DNA of 64,000 bases from Nitrosopumilaceae archaeon. GTDB lineage: Archaea > Thermoproteota > Nitrososphaeria > Nitrososphaerales > Nitrosopumilaceae. The stretch covers positions 96,001 through 160,000 of the forward strand of contig CBDCCK010000002.1 of NCBI GenBank assembly GCA_965214835.1, written 5' to 3'. Shown one piece after another: positions 14,977-63,126 of the stretch (its first letter is position 1; every line of letters starts with the position of its first letter). The position numbers and the translations under genes were made by a program. Below the pieces are notes generated by a model. That model saw only the letters and a list, made by a program, of their open reading frames with translations, was not told the origin of the DNA and searched no databases.

Positions 14977-15160
14977 TAAAACACCTTTTTTTGGTTGTCT
15001 CTTGGCACTGTCGTCATGACAGTGCAACGGCACGGCATTCTTTCCCGCGCCCGGTGTGATGCTGTAAAAAAACACATGATATGGGCCAGGTGACATCCGG
15101 CCCAAATGACACATGATAGAATCTTCATGCGCCGCTATACTGCGGAAAACTGTTCTCGGA

Positions 15161-15230
15161 CTCCCACACCTGCCTGCCTGTCAGCCTACAATAGTAGGTA
15201 ATGCAGGATTTGGAGGCCGCTGTCAGGTCA
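15161..15230 (-). ncRNA. Unknown structured motif X, copy 1
   Basis: TGACCTG..CTCC-AAAT-CCTGC-ATTA-hairpin-CTGACAGGCAG-GCAGG-TGTG-GGAG, following a T-tract. Confidence 0.6.
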
Positions 15231-15314
15231 CGAAAAAATTGGGGTTTGGACCGTCTACATGCGGCCCGTGTTCAGATACGCACAGTTGGGACATGCCGTC
15301 ACATGCCTCCTGCC

Positions 15315-15379
15315 TTCCACACCTGCCTGCCTGTCAGCCCTTTCGGGTATTGCAGGGTTTGAAAACAGTTGCCAGGTCA
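15315..15379 (-). ncRNA. Unknown structured motif X, copy 2
   Basis: Same conserved blocks with a shorter apical hairpin (CCC-GAAA-GGG). Confidence 0.6.
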
Positions 15380-15410
15380 CTAAAAATGTTGGATGCGTGC
15401 AGCCCCGAGG

Positions 15411-15758: not shown

Positions 15759-15776
15759 GTTGTTTGTTCCTTCGGA

Positions 15777-15845
15777 CTCCCACACCTGCCTGCCTGTCAG
15801 CCTACAAAGTAGGTAATGCAGGATTTGGAGACCGCTGTCAGGTCA
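15777..15845 (-). ncRNA. Unknown structured motif X, copy 3
   Basis: Ends about 19 nt upstream of the ATG at 15758. Confidence 0.6.
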
Positions 15846-15876
15846 CGAAAAAATGTTGGATGCGTTGCCCTTGATG

Positions 15877-16191: not shown

Positions 16192-16209
16192 GTTGTTTGT
16201 TCCTTCGGA

Positions 16210-16277
16210 CTCCCACACCTGCCTGCCTGTCAGCCTACAAAGTAGGTAATGCAGGATTTGGAGCCCTTGTCAGGTCA
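16210..16277 (-). ncRNA. Unknown structured motif X, copy 4
   Basis: Ends about 19 nt upstream of the ATG at 16191. Confidence 0.6.
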
Positions 16278-16312
16278 CTAAAAAATTTATGGTGTTTGAA
16301 GGAACAGGATTC

Positions 16313-16741: not shown

Positions 16742-16775
16742 TTTTTCTCCATTTGGCGTCTCACTCGCCGTGCAT

Positions 16776-16852
16776 TTCCCACACCGGCCTGCCTGTCAGC
16801 CCCGTGCCGCAATGGGACGGGATGATGCCGGTTTGGAATGGTTGGCAGGTCA
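16776..16852 (-). ncRNA. Unknown structured motif X, copy 5 (covarying)
   Basis: CCTGC/GCAGG becomes CCGGC/GCCGG and CTCC/GGAG becomes TTCC/GGAA, while the loop blocks are unchanged. Confidence 0.65.
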
Positions 16853-18978: not shown

Positions 18979-19533
18979 TCAGTCTCTGCCGAAGAGACTG
19001 TTCCATTGTGCCAGGAGGCGACCAAAGACAGGCCACGAATACCCGTCGTCGTGACAAGGATGCGCGCCATACCTTCCAACGAAGAGATCGGCCCATACCT
19101 CGCTGGCAAAACTCTCACGATTCATGAGTCCATCGGCCATCTCCCGATGGCAGTGCCTCGTGAGCGCAGAGAGGTTCATGCCGTGTTTGATGGCGTGCCC
19201 TATCCACTCGGGATCGCCGGAGCGCGGCAGCAGGTTGGCCTCGTGATGCCCAAGCTCGTGGTAGAGTGTGTTCCTGACACACGCGCCGCAGTGCTGAATG
19301 CCGCAGATGGCAATCTCCATTGAGGAAGGGTCATAGTACCCGTAACAGTCAGGTCTCGAATCTTCCACGTAAAGGAGGCAGACGCCGCGCCTCAGGTACG
19401 ACGGTATGCGAAAATACTCCTCACGGATCATCTCGACTTCGTGGACGTACGGGCGCATCTCCGCGCAGACGGACACTGCCGTCTGTGGTTGCTCGCGGGG
19501 TCGGCTATTGAAGTGGTGAACAGATGTGTTCAT
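18979..19533 (-). CDS. Zincin-like HExxH metallopeptidase
   Basis: GYYDP...YHELGH...SEVWAD (gluzincin-type third ligand). Confidence 0.75.
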   Translation of the reverse strand: MNTSVHHFNSRPREQPQTAVSVCAEMRPYVHEVEMIREEYFRIPSYLRRGVCLLYVEDSRPDCYGYYDPSSMEIAICGIQHCGACVRNTLYHELGHHEANLLPRSGDPEWIGHAIKHGMNLSALTRHCHREMADGLMNRESFASEVWADLFVGRYGAHPCHDDGYSWPVFGRLLAQWNSLFGRD

Positions 19534-19601
19534 TGTAATGTGTAACATGGAAAAAATGGGGGATGGGATGCGACAAACAGCCGCATCCGGATGAGGGGAC
19601 T

Positions 19602-19691
19602 TTAGTCCCAGATTTCCCGGTCTTCGGGATCCTCTTCGAACTCGCGGATTATGCGAGGGTAAAAGGGTGTCTTTTTCTTTTTGGAATTCAT
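19602..19691 (-). CDS. Possible 29-aa micropeptide (MNSKKKK...)
   Basis: Short ORF followed by hairpins and a T-tract; identical copy at 21411..21500. Confidence 0.3.
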   Translation of the reverse strand: MNSKKKKTPFYPRIIREFEEDPEDREIWD

Positions 19692-19817
19692 TACTGAAAT
19701 TTCTGGAATCAGGAAATGCCAAAGTCCTCTGCTGCGCCTGTTTCATAGATGTAATCCATGAGCGTAATGTGGAAATTCTTGTAAAGTGTAAATTGTAAAA
19801 AGAAAAAAAAAGGGGGA

Positions 19818-20375
19818 TCAGTCTCTGCCGAAGAGACTGTTCCATTTGGGGAGCAGGCGCCTGTAGGTGTCCCACGAATAGTGGAAACAGCTCCATCTGG
19901 ATCCGTGCCTTCCAACGAAGAACTCTGCAAAGACTTCCCCTGCGAATGTGTGCGTGTCCATCTCGCCGCGCTCCATCTTCTGATGGCAGAACTCAGTGTA
20001 CCACGAAAGGCTCCTGCCAAACTCAAGGGATGCAGCAGTCCAGTCCGGGTGTGCCCAGAGCTTGTGCGTCTTGGAGCAGTGGTGCCCGAGCTCATGGTAG
20101 ATGAGAGACCTTACGCATCTGCGACAGTGCTGCAATCCACAGACGGTGATCGTCTGATCCGTCCAACAATAGAACCCTCCACCTTCCGGTCTGGGCCCTG
20201 CAATGTGCAGACAGCGGATACCGCGCCTGAGATCAGGGCGGACGCGAAAGTACTCCTTGCGGATTATTCTGACAGCATGCTCATGTACGAGCATTTCCTT
20301 GCTGACAGTGAACTTCGGCGTGTAGCGCTCCGGAGAGCGTCGGCATTTGAAGATGTTTGTAAACATGTTCACCAT
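19818..20375 (-). CDS. Zincin-like HExxH metallopeptidase (divergent paralogue)
   Basis: GFYCW...YHELGH...GEVFAEFF; ends WNSLFGRD like its paralogues. Confidence 0.75.
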   Translation of the reverse strand: MVNMFTNIFKCRRSPERYTPKFTVSKEMLVHEHAVRIIRKEYFRVRPDLRRGIRCLHIAGPRPEGGGFYCWTDQTITVCGLQHCRRCVRSLIYHELGHHCSKTHKLWAHPDWTAASLEFGRSLSWYTEFCHQKMERGEMDTHTFAGEVFAEFFVGRHGSRWSCFHYSWDTYRRLLPKWNSLFGRD

Positions 20376-20787: not shown

Positions 20788-21342
20788 TCAGTCTCCGCCG
20801 AAGAGACTGTTCCATTGTGCCAGGAGGCGACCAAAGACAGGCCACGAATACCCGTCGTCGTGACAAGGATGCGCGCCATACCTTCCAACGAAGAGCTCGG
20901 CCCATACCTCGCTGGCAAAACTCTCACGATTCATGAGTCCATCGGCCATCTCCCGATGGCAGTGCCTCGTGAGCGCAGAGAGGTTCATGCCGTGTTTGAT
21001 GGCGTGCCCTATCCACTCGGGATCGCCGGAGCGCGGCAGCATGTTGGCCTCGTGATGCCCAAGCTCGTGGTAGAGTGTGTTCCTGACACACGCGCCGCAG
21101 TGCTGAATGCCGCAGATGGCAATCTCCATTGAGGAAGGGTCATAGTACCCGTAACAGTCAGGTCTCGAATCTTCCACGTAAAGGAGGCAGACGCCGCGCC
21201 TCAGGTACGACGGTGTGCGAAAATACTCCTCACGGATCATCTCGACTTCGTGGACGTACGGGCGCATCTCCGCGCAGACGGACACTGCCGTCTGTGGTTG
21301 CTCGCGGGGTCGGCTATTGAAGTGGTGAACAGATGTGTTCAT
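20788..21342 (-). CDS. Zincin-like HExxH metallopeptidase (near-identical to 18979..19533)
   Basis: Duplicated at a 1809-bp offset; YHELGH motif. Confidence 0.75.
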   Translation of the reverse strand: MNTSVHHFNSRPREQPQTAVSVCAEMRPYVHEVEMIREEYFRTPSYLRRGVCLLYVEDSRPDCYGYYDPSSMEIAICGIQHCGACVRNTLYHELGHHEANMLPRSGDPEWIGHAIKHGMNLSALTRHCHREMADGLMNRESFASEVWAELFVGRYGAHPCHDDGYSWPVFGRLLAQWNSLFGGD

Positions 21343-21577
21343 TGTAATGTGTAACATGGAAAAAATGGGGGATGGGATGCGACAAACAGCCGCATCCGGA
21401 TGAGGGGACTTTAGTCCCAGATTTCCCGGTCTTCGGGATCCTCTTCGAACTCGCGGATTATGCGAGGGTAAAAGGGTGTCTTTTTCTTTTTGGAATTCAT
21501 TACTGAAATTTCTGGAATCAGGAAATGCCAAAGTCGGCGGAGTTATATGGTGGGATAATTGTACAGGAAATGGTGAT

Positions 21578-23172
21578 GAGGGCTCAGACTGCTCCCTGTC
21601 TTCATTGCATCGCAGTGATGCTCAGAATGAATGGTGTCTCATCATCGCCCTCGTTTGTGTAGCAGAATAATGCGGGAATCTAATCGGCAAAGCAGGTTGG
21701 AGTTATATTACAGAATAATGATTCAGGAAATGGTGATGAGGGCTCAGACAACGCCAGATTCATCATGAATCAGACTGGGGGTGTCTCATCATCGCCCTCG
21801 TTTGTGTAGCAGAATAATGCGGGAATTTTCAAAGTCAGAATGGCTGGAGTTATATGGTGGAGTGTGGTACGAAACATGGTGATGAGGGCTCAGATGTCAC
21901 GGCTTTCTTCATAGCCACGACAGGCTCGGAGATTATTGCTGATCTCGGCCCTTTGTTCTTCATCATCGCCCTCGTTTGTGTAGCAGAATAATGCGGGAAT
22001 TTTCAAAGTCAGAATGGCTGGAGTTATATGGTGGAGTGTGGTACGAAACATGGTGATGAGGGCTCAGACAACGCCAGATTCATCATGAATCAGACTGTGT
22101 GTGTCTCATCATCGCCCTCGTTTGTGTAGCAGAATAATGCGGGAATTTTCAAAGTTGGAATGGCTGGAGTTATATGGTGGAGTGTGGTACGAAACATGGT
22201 GATGAGGGCTCAGACAACGCCAGATTCATCATGAATCAGACTGTTGGTGTCTCATCATCGCCCTCGTTTGTACAGCATAATTTGCAGAAGTTTCTGCTTC
22301 AAAGTTGGCTGGAGTTATATGGTGGAGTGTGGTACGAAACATGGTGATGAGGGCTCAGACTGATCTCTGTCGTCATTGCATCGCAGTGATGCTCAGTATG
22401 AATGGTGTCTCATCATCGCCCTCGTTTGTGTAGCGGAATAATGCGGGAATCTAATCGGCAAAGCAGGTTGGAGTTATATTACAGAATAATGATTCAGGAA
22501 ATGGTGATGAGGGCTCAGATAGGTAGCTGTCTTCATTCACGAAGTCAGAATAACAGGCTGTCATCATCGCCCTCGTCTGTGTAGCGGAACAATACGGGAA
22601 TCTCGGCGGCAAATCAGGTTGGAGTTATATGGTGGGATGATAATTCAGGAAATGGTGATGAGGGCTCAGACTGACTCGACCGTCATTGCATCACAATGAT
22701 GCTCCGGATGAATGGAACTCATCATCGCCCTTGTTTGTGTAGCGGAATAATACGAAAATCAAAAGTTAGAATGGCTGAAGTTATATGGTGGAGTGTGGTA
22801 CGAAACATGGTGATGAGGGCTCAGAATGCTAACTGTCTTCATTCGTGAAGTCAGTATAACAGGCTGTCATCATCGCCCTCGTTTGTGTAGCAGAATAATG
22901 CCGGAATGACCGGGTTGGAGTTATATTGCAGAATGATGATTCGGGAAATGGTGATGAGGGCTCAGACCTATAGCTGTCTTCATTCGTGAAGTCAGAATGA
23001 ATGGAACTCATCATCGCCCTCGTTTGTGTAGCAGAATAATGCGGGAATCTAATCGGCAAAGCAGGTTGGAGTTATATTGTGGAATGATAATTCAGGAAAT
23101 GGTGATGAGGGCTCAGATAGGTAGCTGTCTTCATTCGTGAAGTCAGAATGAATGGAACTCATCATCGCCCTC
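21578..23172 (-). ncRNA. Tandem array of 11 box C/D guide sRNAs
   Basis: Each unit reads GAGGGCG-ATGATGA(C)-guide-CTGA(D')-loop-ATGAAGA/ATGATGA/ATGACGR(C')-guide-CTGA(D)-GCCCTC. Units: 21578-21652, 21738-21799, 21884-21973, 22058-22119, 22204-22265, 22349-22423, 22509-22574, 22660-22732, 22815-22880, 22956-23021, 23107-23172. Confidence 0.9.
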
Positions 23173-23547: not shown

Positions 23548-24459
23548 ATGGGAAGAAGCACAGAGTCCACGCCGGCCGGCGGGAAGGCGGCATCTCTAGG
23601 AGGCGCCGACATCGCCGTCGGGCTGGACATCGGGACAGGATCAGTCAAGGTCGCGACCAGAAGGCACCGCTTCAAGTTCCCGTCGGTCGTGGCAAGGGGC
23701 CGGGCAATATCCGTCGACGGCTCGGAGCCCGAGTCCGTGTTTGTCGGGGAGCAGGCAATGCGGCAGGAGCACGTCAGGTCCATGCTGCTCAAGACGCCAG
23801 TATACCGGGGGGTGCCGACTGCGATGGACGACTATATCGAGCTGGTGCGGCACGCCCTCGACCTGGTGATCAGGGCCGACAGGAACACGGTCTGGCACGG
23901 GCCGTCAGGATACTCGGAGATGGCAATAGTGGCAGGCATCCCGTACAACTCGCGGGACAGGGTGGAGGCCATAAAGAAGGCAGTGCAGGCCGAGTTTGCC
24001 CCGCACAGGTTCGGCGTGATGTTCCAGGCCAGGGCAACGCTTGAAAACGAGGGGATGAGGGACGGAATAGTGTGCCATATCGGCCACGGGACGACAGAGA
24101 TGATGGCGGTAATCGGCGGGAACACCGCATACGGGGAGACCGTGCCTCACGGCGTGGGAGACGTCGTCATGGCAGTCACGGGATCCAGGACAGGATACAC
24201 CGACCACTCGGTGTTTGCTTCGGGCTCGCAGCTGCTGGCAGAAAACAGGCGCATACTTGCCGGCCACATAGCCGACAGCCTTGAGAAGATAGTCATAGAC
24301 TATCCGGGGCTGGACGTGGTGTTTGCAGGCGGCGGGGCGCTTGTACCGAAGCTGGTAGGCGAGATACGGGTCAGGACGTCGGGGACTGTCAGGACGGCAG
24401 ACGAGCCGGTGTTTTCAAACGCCCTGGGAATGCTGAAGAAGGCGACGGGGCTGTGCTGA
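23548..24459 (+). CDS. ParM/StbA-like actin-family ATPase
   Basis: GLDIGTGSVK (phosphate 1), HIGHGTTE (phosphate 2), AGGGA (adenosine), NALG (connect 2). Confidence 0.85.
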   Translation: MGRSTESTPAGGKAASLGGADIAVGLDIGTGSVKVATRRHRFKFPSVVARGRAISVDGSEPESVFVGEQAMRQEHVRSMLLKTPVYRGVPTAMDDYIELVRHALDLVIRADRNTVWHGPSGYSEMAIVAGIPYNSRDRVEAIKKAVQAEFAPHRFGVMFQARATLENEGMRDGIVCHIGHGTTEMMAVIGGNTAYGETVPHGVGDVVMAVTGSRTGYTDHSVFASGSQLLAENRRILAGHIADSLEKIVIDYPGLDVVFAGGGALVPKLVGEIRVRTSGTVRTADEPVFSNALGMLKKATGLC

Positions 24460-25578: not shown

Positions 25579-26018
25579 CTGCCGCCCTCGGGGAATAATG
25601 CGGCATCCGGGCCTGAAACTGCAGGACACGGAACGTCAGGCAGCGCCTGTATCCGGGGCGCCAACCGGATCCACTGCAAGCTCAAAACCGGACTCTTCCA
25701 TGGACGCGGCGATCCTCTTTGAGGTATCCACGCAAAGCATGCACGTCTCGTCGGATATGACGCCGAGCCCCCCTGCGCGACCTTTTTCCATAGACCCGTG
25801 ACGATGGCACGTCATACGGCGGGGCCATCATATCGTCCACGTCGCGATCGCATTTCCGGCTACGGCGGTATCCTGCGCGCCGGGCGGTTCCGGTGCCTAC
25901 GAGCCAGGCCATGTTGCAGATACCCTGAACTCCTTTAGTGTAACAGGTCGGGCTCTGGAAGTTCAGGCATGAATTTTACCACCAAAGAGGCCTCCGCAGA
26001 TGTAATTCGTGCCTAAAA

Positions 26019-27218
26019 TCACAAGTCACTTCCAAAGTCCGAGCTGTTACCCTTTAGTTCCTTTTTCGAGTTTCGCTTTCTGATTGCCGTTGTCGTGACG
26101 TCGCAAAAACCGTAATGCGACATCATGTCTGCATAAATCCTCTCGGTCGGAACTACGGTCCCGTAGAACGTGGAGTTTCCTATTATATAGTGGGCCCTGG
26201 CACCCGGCCTGAGTACGCGTCGCACGGACTCAAAATGCCTCGACATGTCGTCGCAGTACTTGCCCACGTAGTTTGACAGGACCTTCCCGCTGCGGTCGTT
26301 TCCTGCAATGCTGCGCAGTATCTTCCCGACATATTCAGGGATCCACGACCTTCCACCAGTCCAGCCTGCAAGCCTGCTGGTGGCAATTCCCCACGTCCCG
26401 CCGATGGTACGCCAGTCCATCTCGCCTGCATCGCGCCCGCTTGAAAGGTGGCCAAGCCAGTACATGAACGGACGCAGTTCGCGTATGTATGACATTCTGT
26501 TGGCGTACGGCGGGGACGTAATTATGACGTCAAACATGGATGCGGCGTCCGAAAACTCGCGGGAATCCCCGAGCATGACGCTTACCTTCCCGTATACCGG
26601 CCGTCCAGCGCCGGCGATGACAAAGTCCAGGTTACGCAGAAAGACATCCCTCATCCCGGCACTGGACTGCACGCTGTTCGGCGCGTCCTTGAACGACATG
26701 GACTGGTGGCCGAAATCGGCGCAGGAGAGCTGGATCAGCGTCCTGCAGAATGCGACGTAAAGCAGGTCAGACACGCCGCCCCCGGTCCGCATTATCCCGG
26801 TCTTGAGGCGCCTGATGAACATCTCGGCGTCACATGACCACCACCGGCGCATGTTGTGGATCGGGGGGGACGGCTCTGGCTGTACATGTGGCCCGTCTTC
26901 CAGGATGAGACGTCCAGCCCTTTTGGCGGATCTTATCGTGTCTGCACCGTAATGCCCCGTCTTTGCTCTGGCCAGCCACACCAGGAACGGGTTTACGTCT
27001 ATCGTGGTCGCATCATGACCCCGGTCTGCCGCACATAGTGCAGTAGTACCCACGCCGCAGAACGGATCAAGTATCAGACTGCCTGCAGGACACCGTGATA
27101 TGATCTCGTCGACGATCCTGACAGAATATGCCGGGGTAAGACGCAGCCATCCGTGTCTGCCTGCATCCGTGTTGAATTTGTAGGTATAGTCGCTTCTCTG
27201 CTCTAGCGCAGCCATCAC
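26019..27218 (-). CDS. N4C DNA methyltransferase (alpha arrangement)
   Basis: DPFCGVGTT precedes TSPPY. Confidence 0.85.
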   Translation of the reverse strand: MMAALEQRSDYTYKFNTDAGRHGWLRLTPAYSVRIVDEIISRCPAGSLILDPFCGVGTTALCAADRGHDATTIDVNPFLVWLARAKTGHYGADTIRSAKRAGRLILEDGPHVQPEPSPPIHNMRRWWSCDAEMFIRRLKTGIMRTGGGVSDLLYVAFCRTLIQLSCADFGHQSMSFKDAPNSVQSSAGMRDVFLRNLDFVIAGAGRPVYGKVSVMLGDSREFSDAASMFDVIITSPPYANRMSYIRELRPFMYWLGHLSSGRDAGEMDWRTIGGTWGIATSRLAGWTGGRSWIPEYVGKILRSIAGNDRSGKVLSNYVGKYCDDMSRHFESVRRVLRPGARAHYIIGNSTFYGTVVPTERIYADMMSHYGFCDVTTTAIRKRNSKKELKGNSSDFGSDL

Positions 27219-27383: not shown

Positions 27384-27659
27384 CTACGGCCTATCCCGCC
27401 CATCCCCCAGCCTGTCCCTGAGGATGTCACGAATTTCATCGAGGGTAGATGACATACGGTCCAGCTTGTCCAGCTTGGCATCGATACGGTCCAGCTTGTC
27501 CAGCTTGGCATCGATACGGTCCAGCTTGCCTCCAAGCAGCTCCTCGGTCTTTCTGATTCTCCTTTCGCTCAACCACAAGTTGATTCCAAATAACGGCAAA
27601 GCAAATAAAGCCGAAAAGAACAGCCACGTCCGGATGGCCTCGCCGTAGACGGCATGCAT
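27384..27659 (-). CDS. LDKLD heptad-repeat membrane protein (5'-truncated copy)
   Basis: HAVYGEAIRTWLFFSAL matches the middle of 63127..63555. Confidence 0.6.
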   Translation of the reverse strand: MHAVYGEAIRTWLFFSALFALPLFGINLWLSERRIRKTEELLGGKLDRIDAKLDKLDRIDAKLDKLDRMSSTLDEIRDILRDRLGDGRDRP

Positions 27660-27695
27660 GCCCCTCGCCCTGCCTGCCAGAGCACGGATTCACGT

Positions 27696-28154
27696 CTATT
27701 TCAGCTTGCCGCTTATCTCATTCAGCTTGCCGCTTATCTCATTCAGCTTGCCGTTCATCTCCCTGAGGGTGTCGCGCATCTCCTTGAGGGTCTCTGATAT
27801 GTCGTCCAGCTTGTCCAGCTTCTTGTCCATCGTCTCAAGCTTGTCCAGCTTGTCCAGCTTCTTGTCCATCGTCTCAAGCTTGTCCAGCTTCTTGTCTATT
27901 ACGTCCAGCTTGCCTCCAAGCAGCTCCTCGGTCTTTTTAATCCTCCTTTCGCCCAACAACAAGTTGAATATGAAAAGCGGCAAAGTAGATAAAGCCGAAA
28001 CTGGGGCCGCAATCTGCACTGCCCAGTCATATGCGGCCGCTATCTCCGGGAAGAATCTCACGACAATGGCGGTTCCTACCAGTGTGGAGATTGATCCTGC
28101 CAGGAATGCTCGCACTATTCTCAATGCAATATCCAGCCGATCGCGCTTGGCCAT
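27696..28154 (-). CDS. LDKLD heptad-repeat membrane protein
   Basis: Two TM helices plus LDKLETMDKKLDKLD repeats; TTAATT box about 24 nt upstream. Confidence 0.75.
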   Translation of the reverse strand: MAKRDRLDIALRIVRAFLAGSISTLVGTAIVVRFFPEIAAAYDWAVQIAAPVSALSTLPLFIFNLLLGERRIKKTEELLGGKLDVIDKKLDKLETMDKKLDKLDKLETMDKKLDKLDDISETLKEMRDTLREMNGKLNEISGKLNEISGKLK

Positions 28155-34076: not shown

Positions 34077-35261
34077 ATGTGTCATGCTGATCGTGATTAT
34101 ATGGGCGTGGATGCATGGCATGAGAGGATGGCAGAATGGCTGGGGATGAATCCTGCCCATAGGCCAAACCGCCTCGTCTGCGTGCTTGAGGACGGCGGCG
34201 GGGATGACGGTATACATGAGGACGCCAGGCGTCTGGGGGTCATGGCGTGTGATGTAGGTGACGAGAGATGGATGATGGCGCCGTCCTCACCTGCCGTCAT
34301 AACGGGCACGCATGATGAGATCTTCTCTAGGGCCCTCAACAGGGGATACGGGGTGCGAGCAGACATGTGGAACATGCAGTTCGGACTGCTCAACAATGAC
34401 TGCCTGTGGGTTGACGGGACGGACAGCGGGCTGCACGCAGCCCTGTCTGATCTGCGCAGCAGGCTTCCCACGTTTCGCACGCCGGAAACTGTAGATCCGT
34501 CACAGTGTCATACCCAAGACATTCCGATTCACGGGCTGTTCGGCACCGGTAACATGTCTGACATAGCCAGGTTCATGCCAAAAGACATGATAGATCAGGA
34601 CGGGTCAATCATTTTAGGTGATATATCTGACATAGCCAGGTTCATGCGGAGACCGGTGGACGGCTGGGAAGGGATACGACCGCCGGCAGGAAGACATCTT
34701 GGAACGCAATGGATTACCCTTGCCGAACACCTCTCCATGACAGAGCGTCTGATATCAGACGTGTGTCCTGCAGGCGTGCCGGACATTGGCTCTCTGAGGA
34801 CTGCTGCCAGGTACCACGACTACGGCAAGGCGCATCCGGAGTTTCAGCGGTGGCTCTTGCAGGGGCTCCCACAAAACGAACATGAGTCAAGGGCGGCCAC
34901 GGCATGGGCAAAGAGAAGACCAAAGGCGGCACTTGGCAGGATAGATTACAGTCACGAGATTGCAGGAGCGGGTGCTCTTCTGCGGCTCCACCCAGGGGAT
35001 CATCTGGCCGCATACCTCGTCATGTCGCACCACGGCAGGTTCAGATCAGACATACCGGATACCACAGGCAGTCTTCCAAGAACGGATCTGGGTGACGGGA
35101 TGGTGGCCGACGAGGTATCATTTATGGTGACATCAGAAGGATGGAGAAAGACATTCGGTGGACTCTACAGGAGGTACGGACCGTTCCTTTTGTCATATTA
35201 CGAGGCGCTGTTGCGCACAGCAGACATGATTGCAAGTGATTCGGATGAGCGCAGACAGTGA
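34077..35261 (+). CDS. cas3: Internally deleted type I-G (I-U) Cas3: helicase remnant plus C-terminal HD nuclease
   Basis: PAVITGT..SRALNRGYG..GLLNND is the I-G Cas3 signature but DEAH is lost; HD domain EHL..HDYGK..HE..HHG..LRTAD is intact. Confidence 0.75.
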   Translation: MCHADRDYMGVDAWHERMAEWLGMNPAHRPNRLVCVLEDGGGDDGIHEDARRLGVMACDVGDERWMMAPSSPAVITGTHDEIFSRALNRGYGVRADMWNMQFGLLNNDCLWVDGTDSGLHAALSDLRSRLPTFRTPETVDPSQCHTQDIPIHGLFGTGNMSDIARFMPKDMIDQDGSIILGDISDIARFMRRPVDGWEGIRPPAGRHLGTQWITLAEHLSMTERLISDVCPAGVPDIGSLRTAARYHDYGKAHPEFQRWLLQGLPQNEHESRAATAWAKRRPKAALGRIDYSHEIAGAGALLRLHPGDHLAAYLVMSHHGRFRSDIPDTTGSLPRTDLGDGMVADEVSFMVTSEGWRKTFGGLYRRYGPFLLSYYEALLRTADMIASDSDERRQ

Positions 35262-39820: not shown

Positions 39821-40367
39821 GCTTCAATGGGACCACGACATTATCGTCGCGGAAATGGATGATGGCGCCGTCTTCGCCTGCCGTCATAACGGGCTTCAAT
39901 GGGGCCGCAACTTTATCGTCGCGGAAAGATATAATGCGAGATTTAACACAGGAACTCGGAAACTTGCTTCAATGGGGCCGCAACTTTATCGTCGCGGAAA
40001 GGTCGGAACCATGGGACGGATTGGCGGGACGGGAGGACGCTTCAATGGGGCCGCAACTTTATCGTCGCGGAAAGGTCGGAACCATGGGACGGATTGGCGG
40101 GACGGGAGGACGCTTCAATGGGGCCGCGACATTACCGTCGCGGAAATTCGTGAGGGCCCTGGAAATGATGATGCGTATATCACAGCTTCAATGGGGCCGC
40201 GACATTACCGTCGCGGAAATAGCTTTCTGCATATGCCGTTACATGCATCGTCATTACGCTTCAATGGGGCCGCGACATTACCGTCGCGGAAATTGGGTAA
40301 TGACGTGACTACCATATCCCTGCAGGGCAACGCTTCAATGGGGCCGCGACATTACCGTCGCGGAAAT
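39821..40367 (-). CRISPR. Type I-G-like CRISPR array, 8 repeats and 7 spacers
   Basis: 36-bp repeat GCTTCAATGGGGCCGCGACATTACCGTCGCGGAAAT (two variants) at 39821, 39893, 39966, 40039, 40112, 40185, 40258, 40332; spacers 36-38 bp, spacers 3 and 4 identical; minus orientation ends in ATTGAAGC. Confidence 0.97.
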
Positions 40368-40593
40368 ACTGCAATGCCGACAGGTTCGGCCATTGCCTGT
40401 GCGTGACAGGCATCTTTTTTGTACAGCCCTTGCGTTTTTCGCACCACACATGCCGCGATGGCATGCGTCCTCACACTCACATATAATACATTTTCAAGCG
40501 CCTCCTCACAGCGGTGGTACCCAGGATCCCTCGCATGCCACGCCTGCCGGTGACACCAGAGACATACGTGACGATCTGACGCATATGCAGGAT

Positions 40594-43712: not shown

Positions 43713-46709
43713 TTAAACCCTAGATTGACTGTCTTCCCTCTTTTTTCCCATCCTGTACAGGTGCGCCCTGCCGCCCTTCCTCATGCGTATGGCATACCCC
43801 ATATCGGCTATCTGGCCTGCGATATAGTCGACCTCGTCGCGCTTTGAGGGATCGTTCCTGTTGGATTCCCACATCTGCAGGAGCCGCTGGCAGTGCAGCC
43901 GCTCGGCGTCTGCCTGCGGGCGGTCCCCGTCACCGTCGTCCTCCTTTGCTACAGCCGCTGCTGCTGCTTCTGCGTCATGCGGCCCGTCCTCGCAGTCCGG
44001 AGCCGGAAGCGCCGGAATCCTTTCCTGCGCGGCATCTGCTGCAGTGGTGGCGTCGTTGCCGTCATTATCACCGTCGGCATCGACATCAGCTGCATCCGTT
44101 GTGGCATCTGCAAATGTCACCGGTCCGGCGGATTCTTCTGCGGTATCCGGAGTGCCGTGGGGGATATGAGAACCGGACGGGGTCGCCGCCTCCGCTGCAG
44201 GCTGCTGCCCGGAGCCCTCATTCGCGACACCGCCGCCATCATCTGCGGTGTCGCCGGCATCCGCAGGCCGCCGTCCCGCCTTCAGGTGCTCATACCATCC
44301 GGCCTTGTTGTACGTGTCAACCCTGTCAGTGTCACGACCGCTGGCGACGGCCCCGTCCCTGGCAGCTGTATGGAGGGGGACCGGATCATCATCGTTCTGG
44401 CCGCCACCGTCCGCGTCTCCGCCGCCGGCATCAGCAGGGGGCGACACGCTGCCGCGTCCCCTGTACAGCACGTCCATGTCCTCGGGCCCGAGATCGCCGG
44501 ACTTGTCGGGGAGCAGCGGCCTGACTCCCGGCAGCGACCAGACGACATACAGCGACGGATCCTGCACGCGCCTGCCGTCCGCATCTCCGCCCCGGCCGGT
44601 GATGCCGCTCCTTTCCAGCCTGCCTTCCAGCCCCTGCAGCGACGCGATGACGTCTGCCTCGTCAAACTGCCATACTGAGTCGCAGACGAACCGCTGGGTG
44701 GCAGTCCCGCCTGCGCCCGAGAGCACCTCCATGATGCGGGCCTCACAGGCCGACATTGATCTTATGTTCTCGGATTTCGTATCAGTCAGGTGTGTCCTGT
44801 CCATTACCGTGAGCCGGTACTTGTCGCGCGAGACGCCGTTCTGCTTCATTGTATCGTGCATCCTCTCGGCCGTTGCCGCATCAAAGACGACAAACCAGAC
44901 TGAGTGGCCCAGCGCAGACGACTTTTGCCAGTTTACATACACCTGCTCCCAGTGCTTGCCTGGCCCCGTCTCGACCTCGACTGCCGTGATATCATCAGAC
45001 CACTCCGACGGGTTGAACAGTACGTCTTTGCGGCCGTCCCTGTCCCTGACGGGCTTGGGCGAGTATATCACGAGGTCTGCCTGCTTGGCCGCCCCCCTCC
45101 CGAGATCGGGAACGCAGTACCTCCCGTTGTTGACGTTGATCTCCATTATGGCAAATATGGCAGACAGGTGGAGGTCCCCTCCGGCCCTGCGGCCTGCGGC
45201 CGACCTCGAGAACAGGTTGTGCATGGCAGACTTTGTTATGGTGTATCTTGACTCGAACTTTTCGTCGCCGTCATCGCTTACCGTGTCGTGCTGGGAGACG
45301 TACCCGTTTGTGGCAATCAGCGTGTCGTGCAGCGCCGAGGAGACGTGCCGGGCGTCAGTCGCGTACCTGCGCAGCATGGCATCCGTTATCTCCTTTTTTG
45401 TCATGTCTCGGCTTTCTGTGCGCAGCAGGTTGAGTATCCCGAACTCCAGCGGCGTCAACTGCACGTCTGCGCCCCCGCCGCTCTGCGTGTAGTATTTGTC
45501 AAGGGAGACGAACTTGCCCAGCCGCATGACGCTGTGCCGCGAGGCCTCCTCGGAGCGGTCAGGTATCTCCATGTGGCGCGTCTTTGCCACCGCCTTTACC
45601 GGATTCGTGCCCCCCGACCAGAACGAAAAGTGGTGGAACGGCAGCTGCGTCTGCCGCTCGGGCTTTATCGGCAGTATGGACTTGAGCGAGGCGGCAGTCG
45701 TCGCGTCGCACCTGAAACAGGCGATTGCGCGGCACAGCGTCGGCAGCTCGGCTGCAAACTCGCGCTCTATGGCAGACGTTGACTGGGTGGCAATGGTCGC
45801 CTTGATGCCGTACTTGCGGACGGTATTGAGCAGCTCCCTGATCATGGGCTCTGAGAACATCTGCACCTCGTCCAGGTACAGGTTAAACGGCGCAAACCCC
45901 CCGCCGGGCTGGCGCTGTCTCTTGAGGTACGCGGTATAGAACAGGTGAAGAAACACGTTTCCCAGAAACTTTGTCATGTCGTTTGTCACCCCGCCAAAGT
46001 CCAGCACCACGTACATTCCCCGGTTCAGTATGTCCTCAAACGTTATGGAGGAGCGGCGCGTGTTGAACATCGCATCAAGCTCCGGGACGGTAAGCATCTT
46101 GTTGAGCTTGTTGAAGATGACGCCGCCTGCCTCCTTTGGATACTGCTCCCAGTATACCCTGGTGAAAAAGTCGCGGGCCTGCCGGTTCTGTATCTGTCCG
46201 ACGAACCCCTCGGAGAACTCCTTGTCCGTAAGAAGGCGGATCATGGCGCCAAGCGTGTCTGACTGCGTCCCGATTACGGCAAGTGCGCCGTTTCTGGCGC
46301 ACGTCTCCACGCGGGCCCCCCACGAGTCCGAGAACGCCTTTGCCAGGCATTCTGTGAACGTCAGCGAGACCATTCCCGCCTCGTGGGGATCGTCTATCTG
46401 CAGCGGGTTGAACCTTAGCGTCTTGTCAAGCTTCTTGATCGAGGAGAGGCTGACGTACACTATCCGGTCGTACTGCTCTGGCGGTATCAGCGAGAGGACC
46501 TCGCGGGACAGCTCCGAGTGGTTCTCTGCAAGCAGAAAGCCCCTTCCGGCCTTGATATCCTGCAGGATGAGCAGCCTCAGGACGCTTGACTTGCCGGAGC
46601 CTATCTCGCCGAGTATCAGCATGTTCTGCCGGGCCCTGTACGGCATCGTGAGGACCTTGCGGCCTGCCAGGTATCCGATTACCGAGTGATCGTGCGGGTT
46701 GACCGACAT
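43713..46709 (-). CDS. VirD4/TraD-like coupling ATPase with wHTH and PD-(D/E)xK-like C-terminal extension
   Basis: GEIGSGKS, FNPL, LYLDEVQ, RKYG..ATQ; then ADLVIY..AVEVETG. Confidence 0.8.
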   Translation of the reverse strand: MSVNPHDHSVIGYLAGRKVLTMPYRARQNMLILGEIGSGKSSVLRLLILQDIKAGRGFLLAENHSELSREVLSLIPPEQYDRIVYVSLSSIKKLDKTLRFNPLQIDDPHEAGMVSLTFTECLAKAFSDSWGARVETCARNGALAVIGTQSDTLGAMIRLLTDKEFSEGFVGQIQNRQARDFFTRVYWEQYPKEAGGVIFNKLNKMLTVPELDAMFNTRRSSITFEDILNRGMYVVLDFGGVTNDMTKFLGNVFLHLFYTAYLKRQRQPGGGFAPFNLYLDEVQMFSEPMIRELLNTVRKYGIKATIATQSTSAIEREFAAELPTLCRAIACFRCDATTAASLKSILPIKPERQTQLPFHHFSFWSGGTNPVKAVAKTRHMEIPDRSEEASRHSVMRLGKFVSLDKYYTQSGGGADVQLTPLEFGILNLLRTESRDMTKKEITDAMLRRYATDARHVSSALHDTLIATNGYVSQHDTVSDDGDEKFESRYTITKSAMHNLFSRSAAGRRAGGDLHLSAIFAIMEINVNNGRYCVPDLGRGAAKQADLVIYSPKPVRDRDGRKDVLFNPSEWSDDITAVEVETGPGKHWEQVYVNWQKSSALGHSVWFVVFDAATAERMHDTMKQNGVSRDKYRLTVMDRTHLTDTKSENIRSMSACEARIMEVLSGAGGTATQRFVCDSVWQFDEADVIASLQGLEGRLERSGITGRGGDADGRRVQDPSLYVVWSLPGVRPLLPDKSGDLGPEDMDVLYRGRGSVSPPADAGGGDADGGGQNDDDPVPLHTAARDGAVASGRDTDRVDTYNKAGWYEHLKAGRRPADAGDTADDGGGVANEGSGQQPAAEAATPSGSHIPHGTPDTAEESAGPVTFADATTDAADVDADGDNDGNDATTAADAAQERIPALPAPDCEDGPHDAEAAAAAVAKEDDGDGDRPQADAERLHCQRLLQMWESNRNDPSKRDEVDYIAGQIADMGYAIRMRKGGRAHLYRMGKKREDSQSRV

Positions 46710-46721
46710 CGGCCGGGCCCC

Positions 46722-48563
46722 TCACCTCGGCCTGAACAGCTCCAGCTGCTCCTGGTCGGGAAGCACGTCGACCGGGACCACGGAGTTGCCAAAGCGCACG
46801 AGCGCCTGCCCGCGCCGCATCCGCATCAGCCAGTTGCTCATCTCGCCAGACAGCACAAAGTGCTCGTTGAGGGCGCGCGACGTGGCCTCGGACTGGCGCA
46901 GAAACATCACGGTGTCCGAGTTGACCAGGACGTTGCGGGCCGCCTCGTTTGCTGTCATGTCCTCGATGTTCTGCGTTGCCATGAGCATGTTGATGTTGTA
47001 CTTTCTTCCTCGGCGGGAGAGGTGCTGTATATAGTCTCCCAGCGGCCCGTGCTGGAGGAGCATCCACACCTCGTCGAGCATGAACAGCTTGGGGACTGTC
47101 TTTGACATCATCAGCGAGCGGCCAAGCGCGTACGACAGAGCTATCTGGGTTATCAGGCGGTGGACCGTCCCGCCCGCGGAGCCCACGTTCTTGAGGGAGA
47201 GTATGACGCGCTTTGTGTCCGGCGCCATGCCCCGGAAAAAGTCCTCGTACGGGTGGTGGCACAGCATCCTGAACTGGCCGAGCACCTGCCTGTCCTCGGG
47301 CTCCGTGTGCTTTTCCACCGCATCCACAAATCTGAAAAAGCTGCGCTCCTCCATCGGCATGTTCGACATGTCGGTGGCCGCCATGTTCGCGGGCATCCTC
47401 TTTTCCTCGGGTATGAGCAGCGCGTCGCACAGCGTCTCGGAGGCCGCAAAGGCGTCGGGCACCATCCGGAATAAATCGAGGCCCATCTGCTTGCCCGTCG
47501 AATAGTCCAGGTACGTAAAGCCCATCGAGTCGCCCAGCGCGCGGTACTCGGACTCGGGGTCTATCCCGAATATGAACGCCTCCGGATACATCCGGTCAAA
47601 GGCGTGTATTATCATCATTGCAAGCGTCGTCTTGCCGGATCCTGACAGCGCCGCAAGCACGGTGTTGCGGTTTATGCGGTTGTTGATGTTCCACCGGAAC
47701 GGGTTGCCGGTTACCGTATTGACTCCGAGCAGTATGCCGCCGTCCTCGTAGAGCTCCGACGTCGAGAACGGGACGAGCGCCGCAAAGGTCTCCGTTATGG
47801 CAAGCATCTGCTGGCCCTGCTCCCCTGCAAGCATCTGCGACTGGACGTGGCGCGCAGTCTCCACCCCGGGTACCCCGCGCATGTCTGCCTCGAATACGCG
47901 GGCGCGCTCCCTCAGCTTCTGGTAGTCAAGGGCAAACACCAGCGGTATTATCCGCATCGTATACAGCGACGTCTGGTTTCCGGTTATCATCTCCTTGATT
48001 GCCCGCGCGCTTGCGGCCACGTCGACGCCGCTTGCCGACGAGTCCGTGCTTGAGGAGGCCATGTGGCTTGCAACAACGGAATGCCGCTTTTCGGGTGGGA
48101 TCGGGTTCACGAACATCCTGACGGCATCGGCCTTGGAGTATATGCCGTATATCCACCCTGGGGGCAGCTCGTCGGCAAGCATCCCGATGGTGTACGCCTT
48201 GCAGTATATCCCCGACTTTAGCACGGTACAGTCGGTGTGCTCCCTCTCGACGTCCCATCGGCGGACCTCCGCCGGGCCCGACGATATCGGGGCGACGATA
48301 TGTTCTGCCTCCTTTTCTGCGGTTGTCAGCATGACAGTATCCATCGGGCACCTGCGGACCGTCTTGTTGAATGACAGCTCCTCATAGTCGCGTATGACGT
48401 CCACCGTGAACGGCTCGCGCAGCCTTGAGAGCACGCCGGTATAGTTTGACACCAGGACGTCGCGCTCTGAAACGTCCGATACGGTGCTCTCCGGGTTTGA
48501 GAACATGATGTTTATCGGGCTCAGCCTGAATGCCCTGGGCTTGCCGCGCGTCCTTTTTGGCAT
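46722..48563 (-). CDS. VirB4-like conjugative ATPase
   Basis: GILLGVN, LSGSGKT, IDPESEY, LDEVW, RRGRKY..ATQ. Confidence 0.88.
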   Translation of the reverse strand: MPKRTRGKPRAFRLSPINIMFSNPESTVSDVSERDVLVSNYTGVLSRLREPFTVDVIRDYEELSFNKTVRRCPMDTVMLTTAEKEAEHIVAPISSGPAEVRRWDVEREHTDCTVLKSGIYCKAYTIGMLADELPPGWIYGIYSKADAVRMFVNPIPPEKRHSVVASHMASSSTDSSASGVDVAASARAIKEMITGNQTSLYTMRIIPLVFALDYQKLRERARVFEADMRGVPGVETARHVQSQMLAGEQGQQMLAITETFAALVPFSTSELYEDGGILLGVNTVTGNPFRWNINNRINRNTVLAALSGSGKTTLAMMIIHAFDRMYPEAFIFGIDPESEYRALGDSMGFTYLDYSTGKQMGLDLFRMVPDAFAASETLCDALLIPEEKRMPANMAATDMSNMPMEERSFFRFVDAVEKHTEPEDRQVLGQFRMLCHHPYEDFFRGMAPDTKRVILSLKNVGSAGGTVHRLITQIALSYALGRSLMMSKTVPKLFMLDEVWMLLQHGPLGDYIQHLSRRGRKYNINMLMATQNIEDMTANEAARNVLVNSDTVMFLRQSEATSRALNEHFVLSGEMSNWLMRMRRGQALVRFGNSVVPVDVLPDQEQLELFRPR

Positions 48564-52333: not shown

Positions 52334-52418
52334 CGTGGAAGGCGGGATTCGAACCCGCGGATCGGTTAGAATCAATTGCTTAGGAGACAACCGCTATACC
52401 TGGCTAAGCGACTTCCAC
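52334..52418 (-). tRNA. tRNA with anticodon CCT (nominally Arg) and a long variable arm
   Basis: Acceptor GTGGAAG/CTTCCAC plus G73; D arm GCTT-AGCCAGGTA-TAGC; loop CTCCTAA; variable GATT-CTAACC-GATC; T arm GCGGG-TTCGAAT-CCCGC; TTTTAT box upstream. Confidence 0.88.
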
Positions 52419-61633: not shown

Positions 61634-62032
61634 CTATTTCAGCTTGCCGCTTATCTCATCCAGCTTGCCGTTCATCTCCCTGAGCGTGTCGCGCATATCC
61701 CTGAGGGTCTCTGATATGTCATCAAGCTTGTCCAGCTTCTTGTCCATAGTGTCCAGCTTGTCCAGCTTCTTGTCCATAGTGTCCAGCTTGTCCATGATCT
61801 TCTTCGTGTCACCCCTGCTTAGAAACATGTCAATCACAAAAACCGCGATTCCTATTAAAGCCCCAAAAATGATGCCTAGTGCAGGACTGTCAAACTGGTT
61901 CCAGAAAAAGAATGTGGCTATCAGGGCGGCGGCTACCACTATTGTACAATGTATCGTCAGTGCGATCCAGTCCCTAGTCCCTGGTGGCTCTTGGAGCTTT
62001 CTCCCCATCATGAGGAGTTGTTTGAGTGTCAT
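61634..62032 (-). CDS. LDKLD heptad-repeat membrane protein
   Basis: Two TM helices plus MDKLDTMDKKLDKLD. Confidence 0.75.
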   Translation of the reverse strand: MTLKQLLMMGRKLQEPPGTRDWIALTIHCTIVVAAALIATFFFWNQFDSPALGIIFGALIGIAVFVIDMFLSRGDTKKIMDKLDTMDKKLDKLDTMDKKLDKLDDISETLRDMRDTLREMNGKLDEISGKLK

Positions 62033-62075
62033 GCTAATATGTGATCATGTCAGAAGATGTCGTGGGAGCCTTGCG

Positions 62076-62453: not shown

Positions 62454-62843
62454 CAGTCTGTGTTGTGGCGAGGCCGTGTAAGTCTTTCCCCTGTACTCCC
62501 GGTTGCATGCAGCCTGCCCGCATTCGCATCACCCTGCGGTTCCGCGCTTCCCGGGGCCGCCGGCGACGTCCCGCAACGCGCAGCACCGTCAATTATTTCA
62601 GATTCCCATTCCCCACATGATCAATCCCGTGATGACGCCCAATACAAAGAATATGGCAACGCCCACGGCGGTGTCTTTCATTTCACCCATCAGCCTGCCG
62701 TCTTTCTGCCCATATGCCGCATTCCTCATATTGCCGCCATCTGAATGCCATCGGTTCTGTCCAGCAATCGGTTGAAACTGGACAGCCTGATGCCTACACG
62801 TGCGCGGCCCCTTCGCCCTGCCTGCCAGAGTGCGGATGCGCCG

Positions 62844-63116: not shown

Positions 63117-63126
63117 GAATTCACGG

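Follow-up and report, generated by a model that had tools for sequence, protein, structure and literature searches.

Eleven small RNA genes stand in a row on a contig of a Nitrosopumilaceae archaeon, and two of them carry a guide that seems to point at the catalytic centre of the large ribosomal subunit. The row lies in a 64,000-nucleotide stretch of contig CBDCCK010000002.1 (the window). The locus raises three questions: what the guides pair with, whether they belong to the cell or to a mobile element, and what they would do to the ribosome.

Eleven box C/D sRNA genes in tandem

Box C/D sRNA genes, 11 in all, fill positions 21578-23172 of the window on the minus strand, head to tail with a period of 141-174 nt (Table 1). 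Box C (RUGAUGA), box D (CUGA) and the terminal stem are common to all 11 units, and the motifs flanking the units are observed 11 times against 0.33 expected. U7 and U9, the units with the guide in question, are 66 nt long and also on the minus strand. They read GAGGGC, box C GATGATGA, the guide CAGCCTGTTAT(T/A), box D' CTGA, an 8-nt loop, box C' ATGAAGA, an 11-nt guide, box D CTGA and GCCCTC. The RNA would run from GAGGGC-GAUGAUGA to CUGA-GCCCUC, with a 6-bp terminal stem joining its ends and guide spacers of 12 nt (C to D') and 11 nt (C' to D). Box C', as AUGAAGA, departs from UGAUGA in one place, namely the U paired with the U of D'.

A promoter-like spacer with a TATA-like motif lies upstream of each unit, and the solitary chromosomal paralogues of these genes have TATA-like runs at a similar distance. 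Each unit thus appears to have a promoter of its own. A C/D RNA on the plus strand was also considered, as GGTGATGA follows a TTATAT motif there at a distance of about 25 nt. Box D is missing, however, so an RNA from that strand would not be a C/D RNA.

Table 1. Units of the sRNA array and one representative spacer, in window coordinates
Feature	Position	Strand	Description
U1	21578..21652	-	75 nt; D' guide GACACCATTCATT, a diverged helix-71 guide with an 8-nt match; D guide orphan
U2	21738..21799	-	62 nt; D guide ATCTGGCGTTGT to 16S 906-915 (10 nt); D' guide orphan
U3	21884..21973	-	90 nt, long and atypical; D guide AAGCCGTGACAT
U4	22058..22119	-	U2 class, with 16S C970 guide; D' guide variable
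U5	22204..22265	-	U2 class, with 16S C970 guide; D' guide variable
U6	22349..22423	-	U1 class; two guides, both orphan or degenerate
U7	22509..22574	-	Peptidyl-transferase-centre D' guide CAGCCTGTTATT (22549-22560); box D' 22545-22548; D guide CAGCTACCTAT orphan
U8	22660..22732	-	D' guide GTTCCATTCATC, 11 nt paired with 23S 2073-2083; box D' is CGGA
U9	22815..22880	-	Peptidyl-transferase-centre D' guide CAGCCTGTTATA (22855-22866); box D' 22851-22854; D guide CAGTTAGCATT orphan
U10	22956..23021	-	Scaffold as in U7 and U9; helix-71 D' guide GTTCCATTCATT, 11 Watson-Crick pairs
U11	23107..23172	-	First unit transcribed; helix-71 D' guide; D guide identical to that of U7
Spacer 5' of U7 (example)	22575..22650	-	Conserved spacer; TATA-like CCACCATATAACTCC about 50 nt upstream of the 5' end of the sRNA; conserved leader ...GCTACACA(A/G)ACG

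In Rfam, U2 scores 45.7 bits with snoPyro_CD (RF00095), for which the gathering score is 45. U7 and U9 reach only 22-27 bits with families whose gathering scores are 40-45 (RF00213, RF00271, RF01152 and RF01304, all lineage-specific models), and every weaker Rfam match on the array units is to a C/D family. The protein partners of such RNAs are encoded on the chromosome, off the array: fibrillarin (PF01269, 287 bits) and Nop5 (PF01798, 230 bits) adjoin one another at G000:C2:360409-362029, and L7Ae (PF01248, 98 bits) lies at G000:C2:1297221-1297493.

Pairing with the peptidyl-transferase-centre strand

The initial annotation held that U7 and U9 share the D' guide CAGCCTGTTAT(T/A) and that, by the N+5 rule and the E. 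coli 23S sequence, this guide addresses A2451. Its reading of the pairing is borne out. The two guides differ only at the base adjoining box D', which is T in U7 and A in U9; the E. coli segment that it quotes, 2447-2458, agrees with rrlH of strain K-12, GATAACAGGCTG; the guide aligns to the 23S rRNA of the organism itself with no mismatch around the +5 position; and the equivalent of A2451 in the 23S alignment is the partner of the guide base five places upstream of D'. That 23S gene (G000:C2:2956751-2959751, minus strand) reads GATAACAGGCTC at positions 2550-2561, and its A2554 aligns with E. coli A2451. Guide bases 2-11 form 10 contiguous Watson-Crick pairs with 23S 2551-2560 in both units, the N+5 pair being U-A. 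Guide base 1 makes a G·U pair in U7, where the duplex spans 23S 2550-2560, and a mismatch in U9. Guide base 12 gives a C·C mismatch because the organism's own 23S has C at the position of E. coli G2458.

Complementarity between the guides and rRNA exceeds chance. At least 10 contiguous complementary bases are found for 5 of the 17 distinct guide variants of the array against sense rRNA and for 0 of 17 against antisense rRNA. Random 4.47-kb segments of the genome, 2000 in number, gave 0.17 on average; the value of 5 was attained by a fraction of 0.001, the high values coming from segments that overlap the array itself.

Several other guides have identifiable targets. The D guide of U2 has 16S C909, aligned with E. 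coli C970 (helix 31), at its N+5 position, and the D' guide of U8 has 23S A2076, aligned with E. coli A1969 (helix 71). H68-71 and the surroundings of the peptidyl-transferase centre are described as methylation hotspots in the consulted portions of a review and a survey (PMC4644070, PMC7994747). U3 is a paralogue of a solitary gene at G000:C2:1121378 with an identical D guide; this guide has a 10-nt complement in tRNA-Asp(GTC), and the 5' region of U3 has an 11-nt complement downstream of 23S. Apart from these U3 matches, the orphan guides have no complement of at least 9 nt in rRNA, the flanks of the rRNA operon or 65 tRNAs, and the D guides of U7 and U9 likewise have no target of that length in the same set. 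About half of the guides of the array are without an rRNA or tRNA target, so the array tolerates guides that do not target.

U7 and U9 differ at 7 of 66 nt, and in their spacers as well, while guide bases 2-12 are identical. Contigs from X5, a run of another study, have both guides unchanged and differ at two bases in the loop of U9. Between U7 and U11, 6 of 12 guide positions differ, versus 2 of 54 positions outside the guide, a pattern that looks like the swap of a guide onto a working scaffold and not like decay.

Recurrence of the guide in other genomes

The exact guide, in the exact register, is found in C/D sRNAs of three other genomes: G308 (three genes), G032 (one) and G400 (one, as a D guide). 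Counting the genome of the array, this makes 4 of the 401 genomes of the class, from three genera. The class-wide search gave one further match, inside a coding sequence, and its reversed-pattern control gave 1. Three of the recurring sRNA genes match records of Candidatus Nitrosocaldus schleperae, and of six matches in a metagenome scan two are Nitrosocaldus-type sRNAs and four are without C/D structure. The 23S of G308 and that of G032 carry U at E. coli position 2458, and with A at base 12 of their guide the duplex grows to 11 pairs. The orthologue of the G400 sRNA in G301 has its guide shifted by one base, with A2450 at N+5, and further orthologues carry unrelated guides. The exact base addressed is therefore not conserved.

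Within the family, a search of 200 other genomes at up to one mismatch found no sRNA with the guide, save for a doubtful half-unit in G003. The G004 type is a close non-carrier of the guide with a segment that is 99% identical. Exact matches in the family outside the genome of the array number six, in five genomes; five of them lack box C and the other is the G003 half-unit. Pattern matches with one mismatch are mostly due to chance. One such variant, GCCTGCTATTCTGA, is present in both G019 and G002, the G019 copy being without box C. At up to three mismatches, the guide occurs in 2 of 10 genomes of family f9. A distribution this patchy implies that the guide is dispensable.

Alternative explanations

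The initial annotation suggested that the guides are a device of a mobile element directed against a "host" ribosome. As cargo of this kind, they would act on A2451 of the host, by methylation or as a steric block, and so inhibit or tune translation for the element. Genes of mobile-element type abound in the window around the array: it has a ParM-like actin (23548-24459), TraG/VirD4-like ATPases (43713-48563) and four genes for DNA methylases, together with small CRISPR arrays and many ORFs that lack a family. Few relatives have the guide, and according to the parts consulted of PMC2919715 and PMC13215694, peptide-bond formation in vitro is crippled when the A2451 2'-OH is lost. Several features of the array go the other way. 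A strict two-guide C/D pattern run over the 3.2-Mb genome gives nine matches, all nine inside the array, so that most of the genome's C/D gene set lies here, and solitary chromosomal C/D paralogues carry the same GAGGGC/GCCCTC stem. The remaining guides aim at ordinary conserved rRNA sites. Arrays or units occur in 3 of 40 relatives searched with model R1 (G002, G004 and G019, from two genera); one G004 unit is aimed at the helix-71 site of the array, and in G002 the C/D units adjoin a homologue of the same DNA methylase, so that neighbouring elements recur along with the array in partial synteny. The three genes of G308 that carry the A2451-register guide are dispersed over its chromosome. 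Two pattern scans of viral contigs each returned a single match that has no C/D structure, blastn against phages gave 0 matches, and no borders of an element were found around the array. The claim of a mobile-element device is thus unsupported and very improbable. An inhibitory or tuning effect of the guides is conceivable, but none of these results demonstrates one.

It is also conceivable that the complementarity does nothing, with U7 and U9 as drifted copies within a duplicating array that evolves fast; they would match a universally conserved strand of 23S by accident and be either unexpressed or aimed at an inaccessible site. Orphan guides make up about half of the array, the helix-71 guides of U1 and U6 have decayed, guides turn over at orthologous loci, and in Pyrobaculum 28% of guides are orphans and replacement of guides is frequent (PMC6009581, in the portion consulted). 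The guide has, moreover, an equally good chance match (11 nt plus G·U) in the mRNA at G000:C2:485421. An accident is nevertheless unlikely, given that all 11 guide bases are kept in two otherwise diverged copies and again in a second population, that the register recurs in three other genomes (with three copies in one), that rRNA matches fall on the sense strand only, and that the differences between U7 and U11 are concentrated in the guide. That same mRNA, from the start of a short-chain-dehydrogenase-like gene, might instead be the real target, or some other RNA might be. Its duplex of 11 Watson-Crick pairs plus one G·U is one base better than that with 23S, and it holds the sole other exact complement of the 11-mer in the genome. 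In 6.4 Mb, both strands counted, chance alone would give about 1.5 matches to such an 11-mer, though, and the consulted portion of PMC6009581 knows of no conserved archaeal C/D targets outside rRNA and tRNA. The guide is also present in genomes of other families, and what these share is the 23S strand. A target other than rRNA is the least probable of the explanations considered.

Predicted action on the ribosome

It would appear, then, that U7 and U9 are the host's own rRNA-directed C/D guides, and probably ones that act at the peptidyl-transferase-centre strand of nascent 23S; the array as a whole is most likely part of the cell's own apparatus for making ribosomes. We infer that the units are expressed, assemble into RNPs and act on pre-23S rRNA. 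Each sRNA would bind L7Ae at the C/D and C'/D' kinks and would then recruit Nop5 and fibrillarin, presenting two guides of about 12 nt. The D' guide of U7 or U9 would pair with nascent 23S at E. coli 2447/2448-2457, in the central loop of domain V, and by the N+5 rule this pairing would place fibrillarin on the ribose of A2451.

Such pairing may have different outcomes. A2451 may be 2'-O-methylated in a measurable share of ribosomes, a possibility that we rate at a little under an even chance. It is also possible, if somewhat more doubtful, that the pairing serves mainly as a chaperone for folding or assembly, with little or no methylation. In the consulted parts of two papers (PMC2919715, PMC13215694), no group is held to be more critical for peptide-bond formation than the 2'-OH of A2451. 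Full methylation should therefore be harmful, and methylation at A2451 would be surprising because this 2'-OH is needed for peptide-bond formation. Lang, in 2008, reportedly found that a hydrogen-donor group is required at the 2' position of A2451.

Significance

C/D guide RNAs are as a kind already well known. For ammonia-oxidising archaea, however, there appears to be essentially no description of them; the portions of the literature covered by our search contain no description of C/D sRNAs from Nitrososphaeria or Thaumarchaeota, and no mention of A2451 methylation was found in the literature searched. Neither 2451 nor the "central loop" is mentioned in the main text of PMC4644070, and the same holds for helix 74 and helix 89; the predicted sites in its additional files may include the equivalent of A2451 in other archaea. 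Relative to those same portions of the literature, an archaeal tandem array of 11 genes with a promoter-like spacer for each unit and a shared terminal stem is new, and the array puts guide swapping on a constant scaffold on display.

A guide with A2451 at N+5 in three genera makes the natural modifiability of the catalytic ribose, and the indispensability of its 2'-OH, accessible to experiment. We tentatively suggest, though we lean against it, that some Nitrososphaeria, by means of multi-copy guide genes (two here, three in a Nitrosocaldus-like genome), 2'-O-methylate A2451, whose ribose is the only one in rRNA with a 2'-OH held to participate in peptide-bond formation. If so, the peptidyl-transferase centre may work with the 2'-OH of A2451 blocked, which would challenge the hydrogen-donor model; alternatively, the methylated fraction may be a built-in pool of silenced ribosomes, its size set by guide dosage. 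Should A2451 prove to be unmodified, the locus would offer a clean case of a C/D guide that pairs without methylating, in support of a chaperone role.

Comparison with known systems

The nearest known relatives of the array are the archaeal box C/D sRNAs (snoPyro_CD RF00095 and the Sulfolobus and Pyrococcus sR families), which guide the methyltransferase made up of L7Ae, Nop5 and fibrillarin. The array resembles them in its C-D'-C'-D order, guides of about 12 nt, terminal stem and N+5 geometry, and in targets within the conserved core of rRNA (here helix 71, helix 31 and the peptidyl-transferase-centre strand). Both, too, contain orphan guides and undergo duplication and guide replacement. The array differs from them in that eleven genes stand head to tail, each with its own promoter-like spacer, in that one guide is aimed at A2451 itself, and in that the carrier lineage is Nitrososphaeria of mesophile type. 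One 6-bp terminal stem serves all units of the genome while the related G004 uses another; a single stem per genome that is different in the other genome suggests concerted evolution.

The eukaryotic snoRNA R38 / snR38 (RF00213) is the best Rfam match of both U7 (25.9 bits) and U9 (27.3 bits). These scores are far below the RF00213 gathering score of 45, so the two units are not snoR38 members. The RF00213 consensus has the D' guide ACAGUUAUCCCUGU, followed by CUGA, and it pairs with an overlapping strand of the large subunit, about E. coli 2443-2453. The snoR38 guide is shifted by 5 nt relative to that of U7 and U9, so that the G found at N+5 is the counterpart of E. coli G2446, which we take to be Gm2815 of yeast. 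In this register snoR38 does not touch A2451, the base that stands at N+5 for U7 and U9.

Plant polycistronic C/D snoRNA clusters, as far as the consulted part of PMC7994747 describes them, share with the array the arrangement of genes in rows, paralogous units and diversified guides. In plants a cluster yields a single precursor transcript that is then processed, whereas the units of the array, as read from sequence alone, each have a TATA-like element about 50 nt upstream.

The U7 and U9 guides and their 23S target

U7 and U9, two of the eleven box C/D sRNA units (U1-U11, with U11 first in the direction of transcription), share one D' guide, the spacer before box D', whose sole variation is at the base beside the box. 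The initial annotation had seen this and had given the facing E. coli stretch; both are borne out, K-12 rrlH 2447-2458 being GATAACAGGCTG. The 23S rRNA of the genome under study (G000) reads GATAACAGGCTC at 2550-2561, with A2554 aligned with E. coli A2451. Guide bases 2-11 form 10 contiguous Watson-Crick pairs with this strand; base 1 is G·U-paired in U7 but mismatched in U9, and at base 12 two C residues face each other as a mismatch. At the fifth position upstream of box D', a U pairs with the A2451 equivalent, so the proposed assignment of A2451 by the N+5 rule (the target base facing the fifth guide base upstream of the box) was correct. Alignment to the host 23S, suggested as a check, shows no mismatch near +5 and therefore does not speak against this target. 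U7 and U9 differ at seven positions, none within guide bases 2-12, and contigs of a sequencing run from another study (X5) keep both guides, with two U9 loop bases changed.

One X5 contig joins 22549 to 22708, skipping 158 nt, which would fuse the D-guide side of U7 and the D'-guide side of U8 into one unit; array order or content therefore varies between populations. Outside the window, the AT-rich start of a short-chain-dehydrogenase-like ORF at G000:C2:485421 also reads GATAACAGGCTG, and the U7 guide pairs one base better there than with 23S (about 1.5 such matches expected by chance, by our arithmetic).

Coordinates of the array and of features around it (window positions unless prefixed with genome and contig)
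Feature	Position	Strand	Description
Array U1-U11	21578-23172	-	11 units head-to-tail, period 141-174 nt
U7	22509-22574	-	66 nt, D' guide CAGCCTGTTAT(T/A)
U9	22815-22880	-	66 nt, D' guide CAGCCTGTTAT(T/A)
U3 and associated loci	21884-21973; G000:C2:1121378-1121469; G000:C2:1337904-1337981		U3, its solitary paralogue and a further locus; D guide AAGCCGTGACAT shared by U3 and paralogue
~80-nt element, five copies	15156-15239, 15309-15388, 15772-15854, 16205-16287, 16771-16850		CCCACACCTGCCTGCCTGTCAGCC ... GTCAGGTCAC(G/T)AAAAA
Tandemly duplicated gene block	18979-19896, 19818-20375, 20788-21531		immediately ahead of array
Repeat-like stretch	25940-26053		~110 nt, between two DNA methylase genes
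In-frame tandem repeats	27454-27912, 61725-63313		many, short, GTCCAGCTTGTCCAGCTT type, periods 9-51
Cas3-HD-like ORF	34077-35261		near CRISPR-type arrays
Two short arrays	39966-40146, 40185-40368		period 73 nt, 2.5 copies each
Rfam CRISPR-DR16	40332-40369		38.6 bits, gathering score 35
tRNA gene	52334-52418	-	85 nt, Rfam tRNA 54.5 bits

Array anatomy and the other guides

The window, G000:C2:96001-160000, is part of a 3.21 Mb contig that also bears the single rRNA operon. Judged by sequence, the units of the array have the anatomy of archaeal box C/D sRNAs and the sequence-level features of that class, in the order GAGGGC, (G)AUGAUGA, guide of 12-13 nt, CUGA, loop, C'-like AUGA(A/C/U)GA, guide of 11-12 nt, CUGA, GCCCUC; box D' of U8 is CGGA instead of CUGA, and U3 is atypical and long. 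U2 reaches the gathering score of the Rfam Pyrococcus C/D model (45.7 bits against 45), and the weaker Rfam matches on the units are nearly all to C/D families and nearly all on the minus strand. The flanking motifs occur 11 times (0.33 expected), and every unit has CCACCATATAACTCC about 45-50 nt upstream; we infer that each has its own promoter and a short processed leader. On the plus strand of the spacers (e.g. 22620-22660), a TTATAT motif precedes GGTGATGA by about 25 nt; this sequence is complementary to the conserved ATCACC found after every 3' stem. An archaeal promoter and the start of an antisense RNA would be spaced in this way; the putative transcript has a box C and lacks box D.

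Sister guides also pair with rRNA. In U8, U10 and U11 the D' guide shows 11-nt pairing with 23S 2073-2083 (N+5 aligned with E. coli A1969, helix 71), and in U2, U4 and U5 the D guide (the spacer before box D) shows 10-nt pairing with 16S 906-915 (N+5 aligned with C970, helix 31). Of the 17 distinct guide variants, five are complementary to sense rRNA over 10 or more contiguous bases and none is to antisense rRNA, against a mean of 0.17 for 2000 random genome segments of equal length. Because the sister guides pair too, in the sense direction only and far above that mean, the U7/U9 match is no isolated coincidence. The remaining guides are orphans, save the D guide that U3 shares with its solitary paralogue: this guide is complementary over 10 nt to the anticodon arm of tRNA-Asp(GTC), which by our count puts N+5 at the third anticodon base. 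In U3, the 5' region is also complementary, over 11 nt, to sequence lying about 185 nt past the 3' end of 23S.

Recurrence and turnover of the guide

The distribution of the guide is patchy. An exact scan for box, guide and box, TGATGANNGCCTGTTATNCTGA, in one genome per species yields 10 loci. Four of these, three in a record titled Candidatus Nitrosocaldus schleperae and one on a short contig of a bin labelled Caldimicrobium, with the flanks of the Nitrosocaldus-type genes, have canonical C/D sRNA form and the D' guide AAGCCTGTTAT(T/G/A); the other six, in records titled as bacteria (five) or as an unclassified uncultured bacterium (one), have no C/D structure. Across 401 genomes of the class, the guide occurs in G000 (two genes) and its relatives G308 (three), G032 (one) and G400 (one, as D guide), with one extra match inside a coding sequence and one in a reversed-pattern control. 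G308 and G032 have U at E. coli 2458 and A at guide base 12, giving an 11-pair duplex; in G000 and G400 that position is C and base 12 is unpaired. Among 200 other genomes of the family, scanned with up to one mismatch, no sRNA with the guide was detected apart from a doubtful half-unit in G003, and in family f9 it is present in 2 of 10 genomes even with up to three mismatches allowed.

In a register scan, the A2451 register turns up in six genes and the A2450 register in one (AGCCTGTTATCT|CTGA, in the relative G301). This G301 gene and that of G400 are orthologous, with a common scaffold and downstream sequence, and the orthologues in two further relatives (G317, G366) have unrelated D guides. 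Pairing with this 23S strand has thus arisen or been kept several times, but the base predicted to be methylated slides. In the array, U7 and U11, whose D guides are identical, differ at 6 of 12 positions of the D' guide but only 2 of 54 others, which points to exchange of the guide while the scaffold stayed constant.

Function of the U7 and U9 guides

The initial annotation had suggested that the element may act against the host ribosome, a framing that the evidence does not support, although the surroundings do look mobile, with a ParM-like actin, DNA methylases, TraG/VirD4-like ATPases, small CRISPR arrays and many family-less ORFs. Several results nevertheless indicate that these C/D genes are the cell's own, and we regard a mobile-element device as very improbable. 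All nine genomic matches to a strict two-guide C/D pattern lie inside the array; a looser scan and a covariance model built from the units recover solitary genes at C2:1620631 and C2:1121378 (the latter a paralogue of U3) that have the array's GAGGGC/GCCCTC stem and TATA-like runs at the same upstream distance, and one further candidate at C2:1108957. The fibrillarin, Nop5 and L7Ae genes are elsewhere on the chromosome. A model (R1) detects units of this kind in 3 of the 40 relatives that were searched: G004, of the same genus, has at least seven in a row with a shared stem of their own (ATGGGC/GCCCAT, unlike that of G000), one of them with the helix-71 guide in the D-guide position; those of G019, of another genus, are clustered; and those of G002 adjoin a homologue of the methylase flanking the G000 array. 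Scans of viral contigs by guide and by family gave one match each, neither with C/D structure, and a phage blastn gave no match.

A host rRNA guide acting at this strand is the reading we consider probable; complementarity without function seems unlikely, and some other RNA target hardly credible. The best-supported mechanism is an ordinary one, in which U7 and U9 would form an L7Ae-Nop5-fibrillarin RNP that pairs with the nascent domain-V central-loop strand of 23S during 50S assembly, the predicted product being 2'-O-methyl-A2451. Lang et al. (2008) reportedly found that hydrogen-donor capacity is required at the 2' position of A2451. The predicted product is awkward because the A2451 2'-OH is, according to two sources, the rRNA group most critical for peptide-bond formation, its removal severely lowering synthesis (PMC2919715, PMC13215694). 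That two lineages retain the guide in several copies speaks against a lethal product, leaving partial methylation, methylation tolerated by these ribosomes, or a folding-chaperone duplex without methylation. Within the host-guide reading, measurable methylation of A2451 has, overall, somewhat less than an even chance, and pairing as a chaperone only is a little less likely. The latter fits the one-base slide between orthologues, and also a rule reported in PMC6009581, that hotspots are conserved and exact methylation sites are not.

Neighbourhood of the array

Each ~80-nt element adjoins a small minus-strand ORF with LDKLDKL-type repeats, and matches of about 70 nt to parts of the 15.3-16.6 kb stretch adjoin the C/D arrays of G004 and G019; the element could be a terminator, a further small RNA or the border of a cassette. 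In the duplicated block, two copies are 98% identical in protein and the third 40%, none with a Pfam family. The stretch between the methylase genes matches more than 30 places at 73-95% identity, spread over contigs of G002 (same genus), and looks like a MITE-like dispersed repeat. The GTCCAGCTTGTCCAGCTT-type repeats, also present in small ORFs at 15.4-16.0 kb, probably encode coiled-coil repeat proteins. The tRNA gene adjoins an Eco57I-type methylase gene and lies downstream of the TraG-like genes; its length suggests an intron, and it is a possible integration site.

Comparison with known systems

Our literature search turned up nothing on thaumarchaeal C/D sRNAs or on A2451 methylation; supplementary site tables of archaeal surveys might include an A2451 site. 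In Rfam, U7 and U9 match the eukaryotic snoR38 family best, though far under threshold; its consensus guide pairs with an overlapping stretch of rRNA in a register 5 nt off, with N+5 at the G2446 equivalent. Archaeal C/D genes form clusters of two or three only, according to a review (PMC7994747), whereas the G000 array has 11 units.
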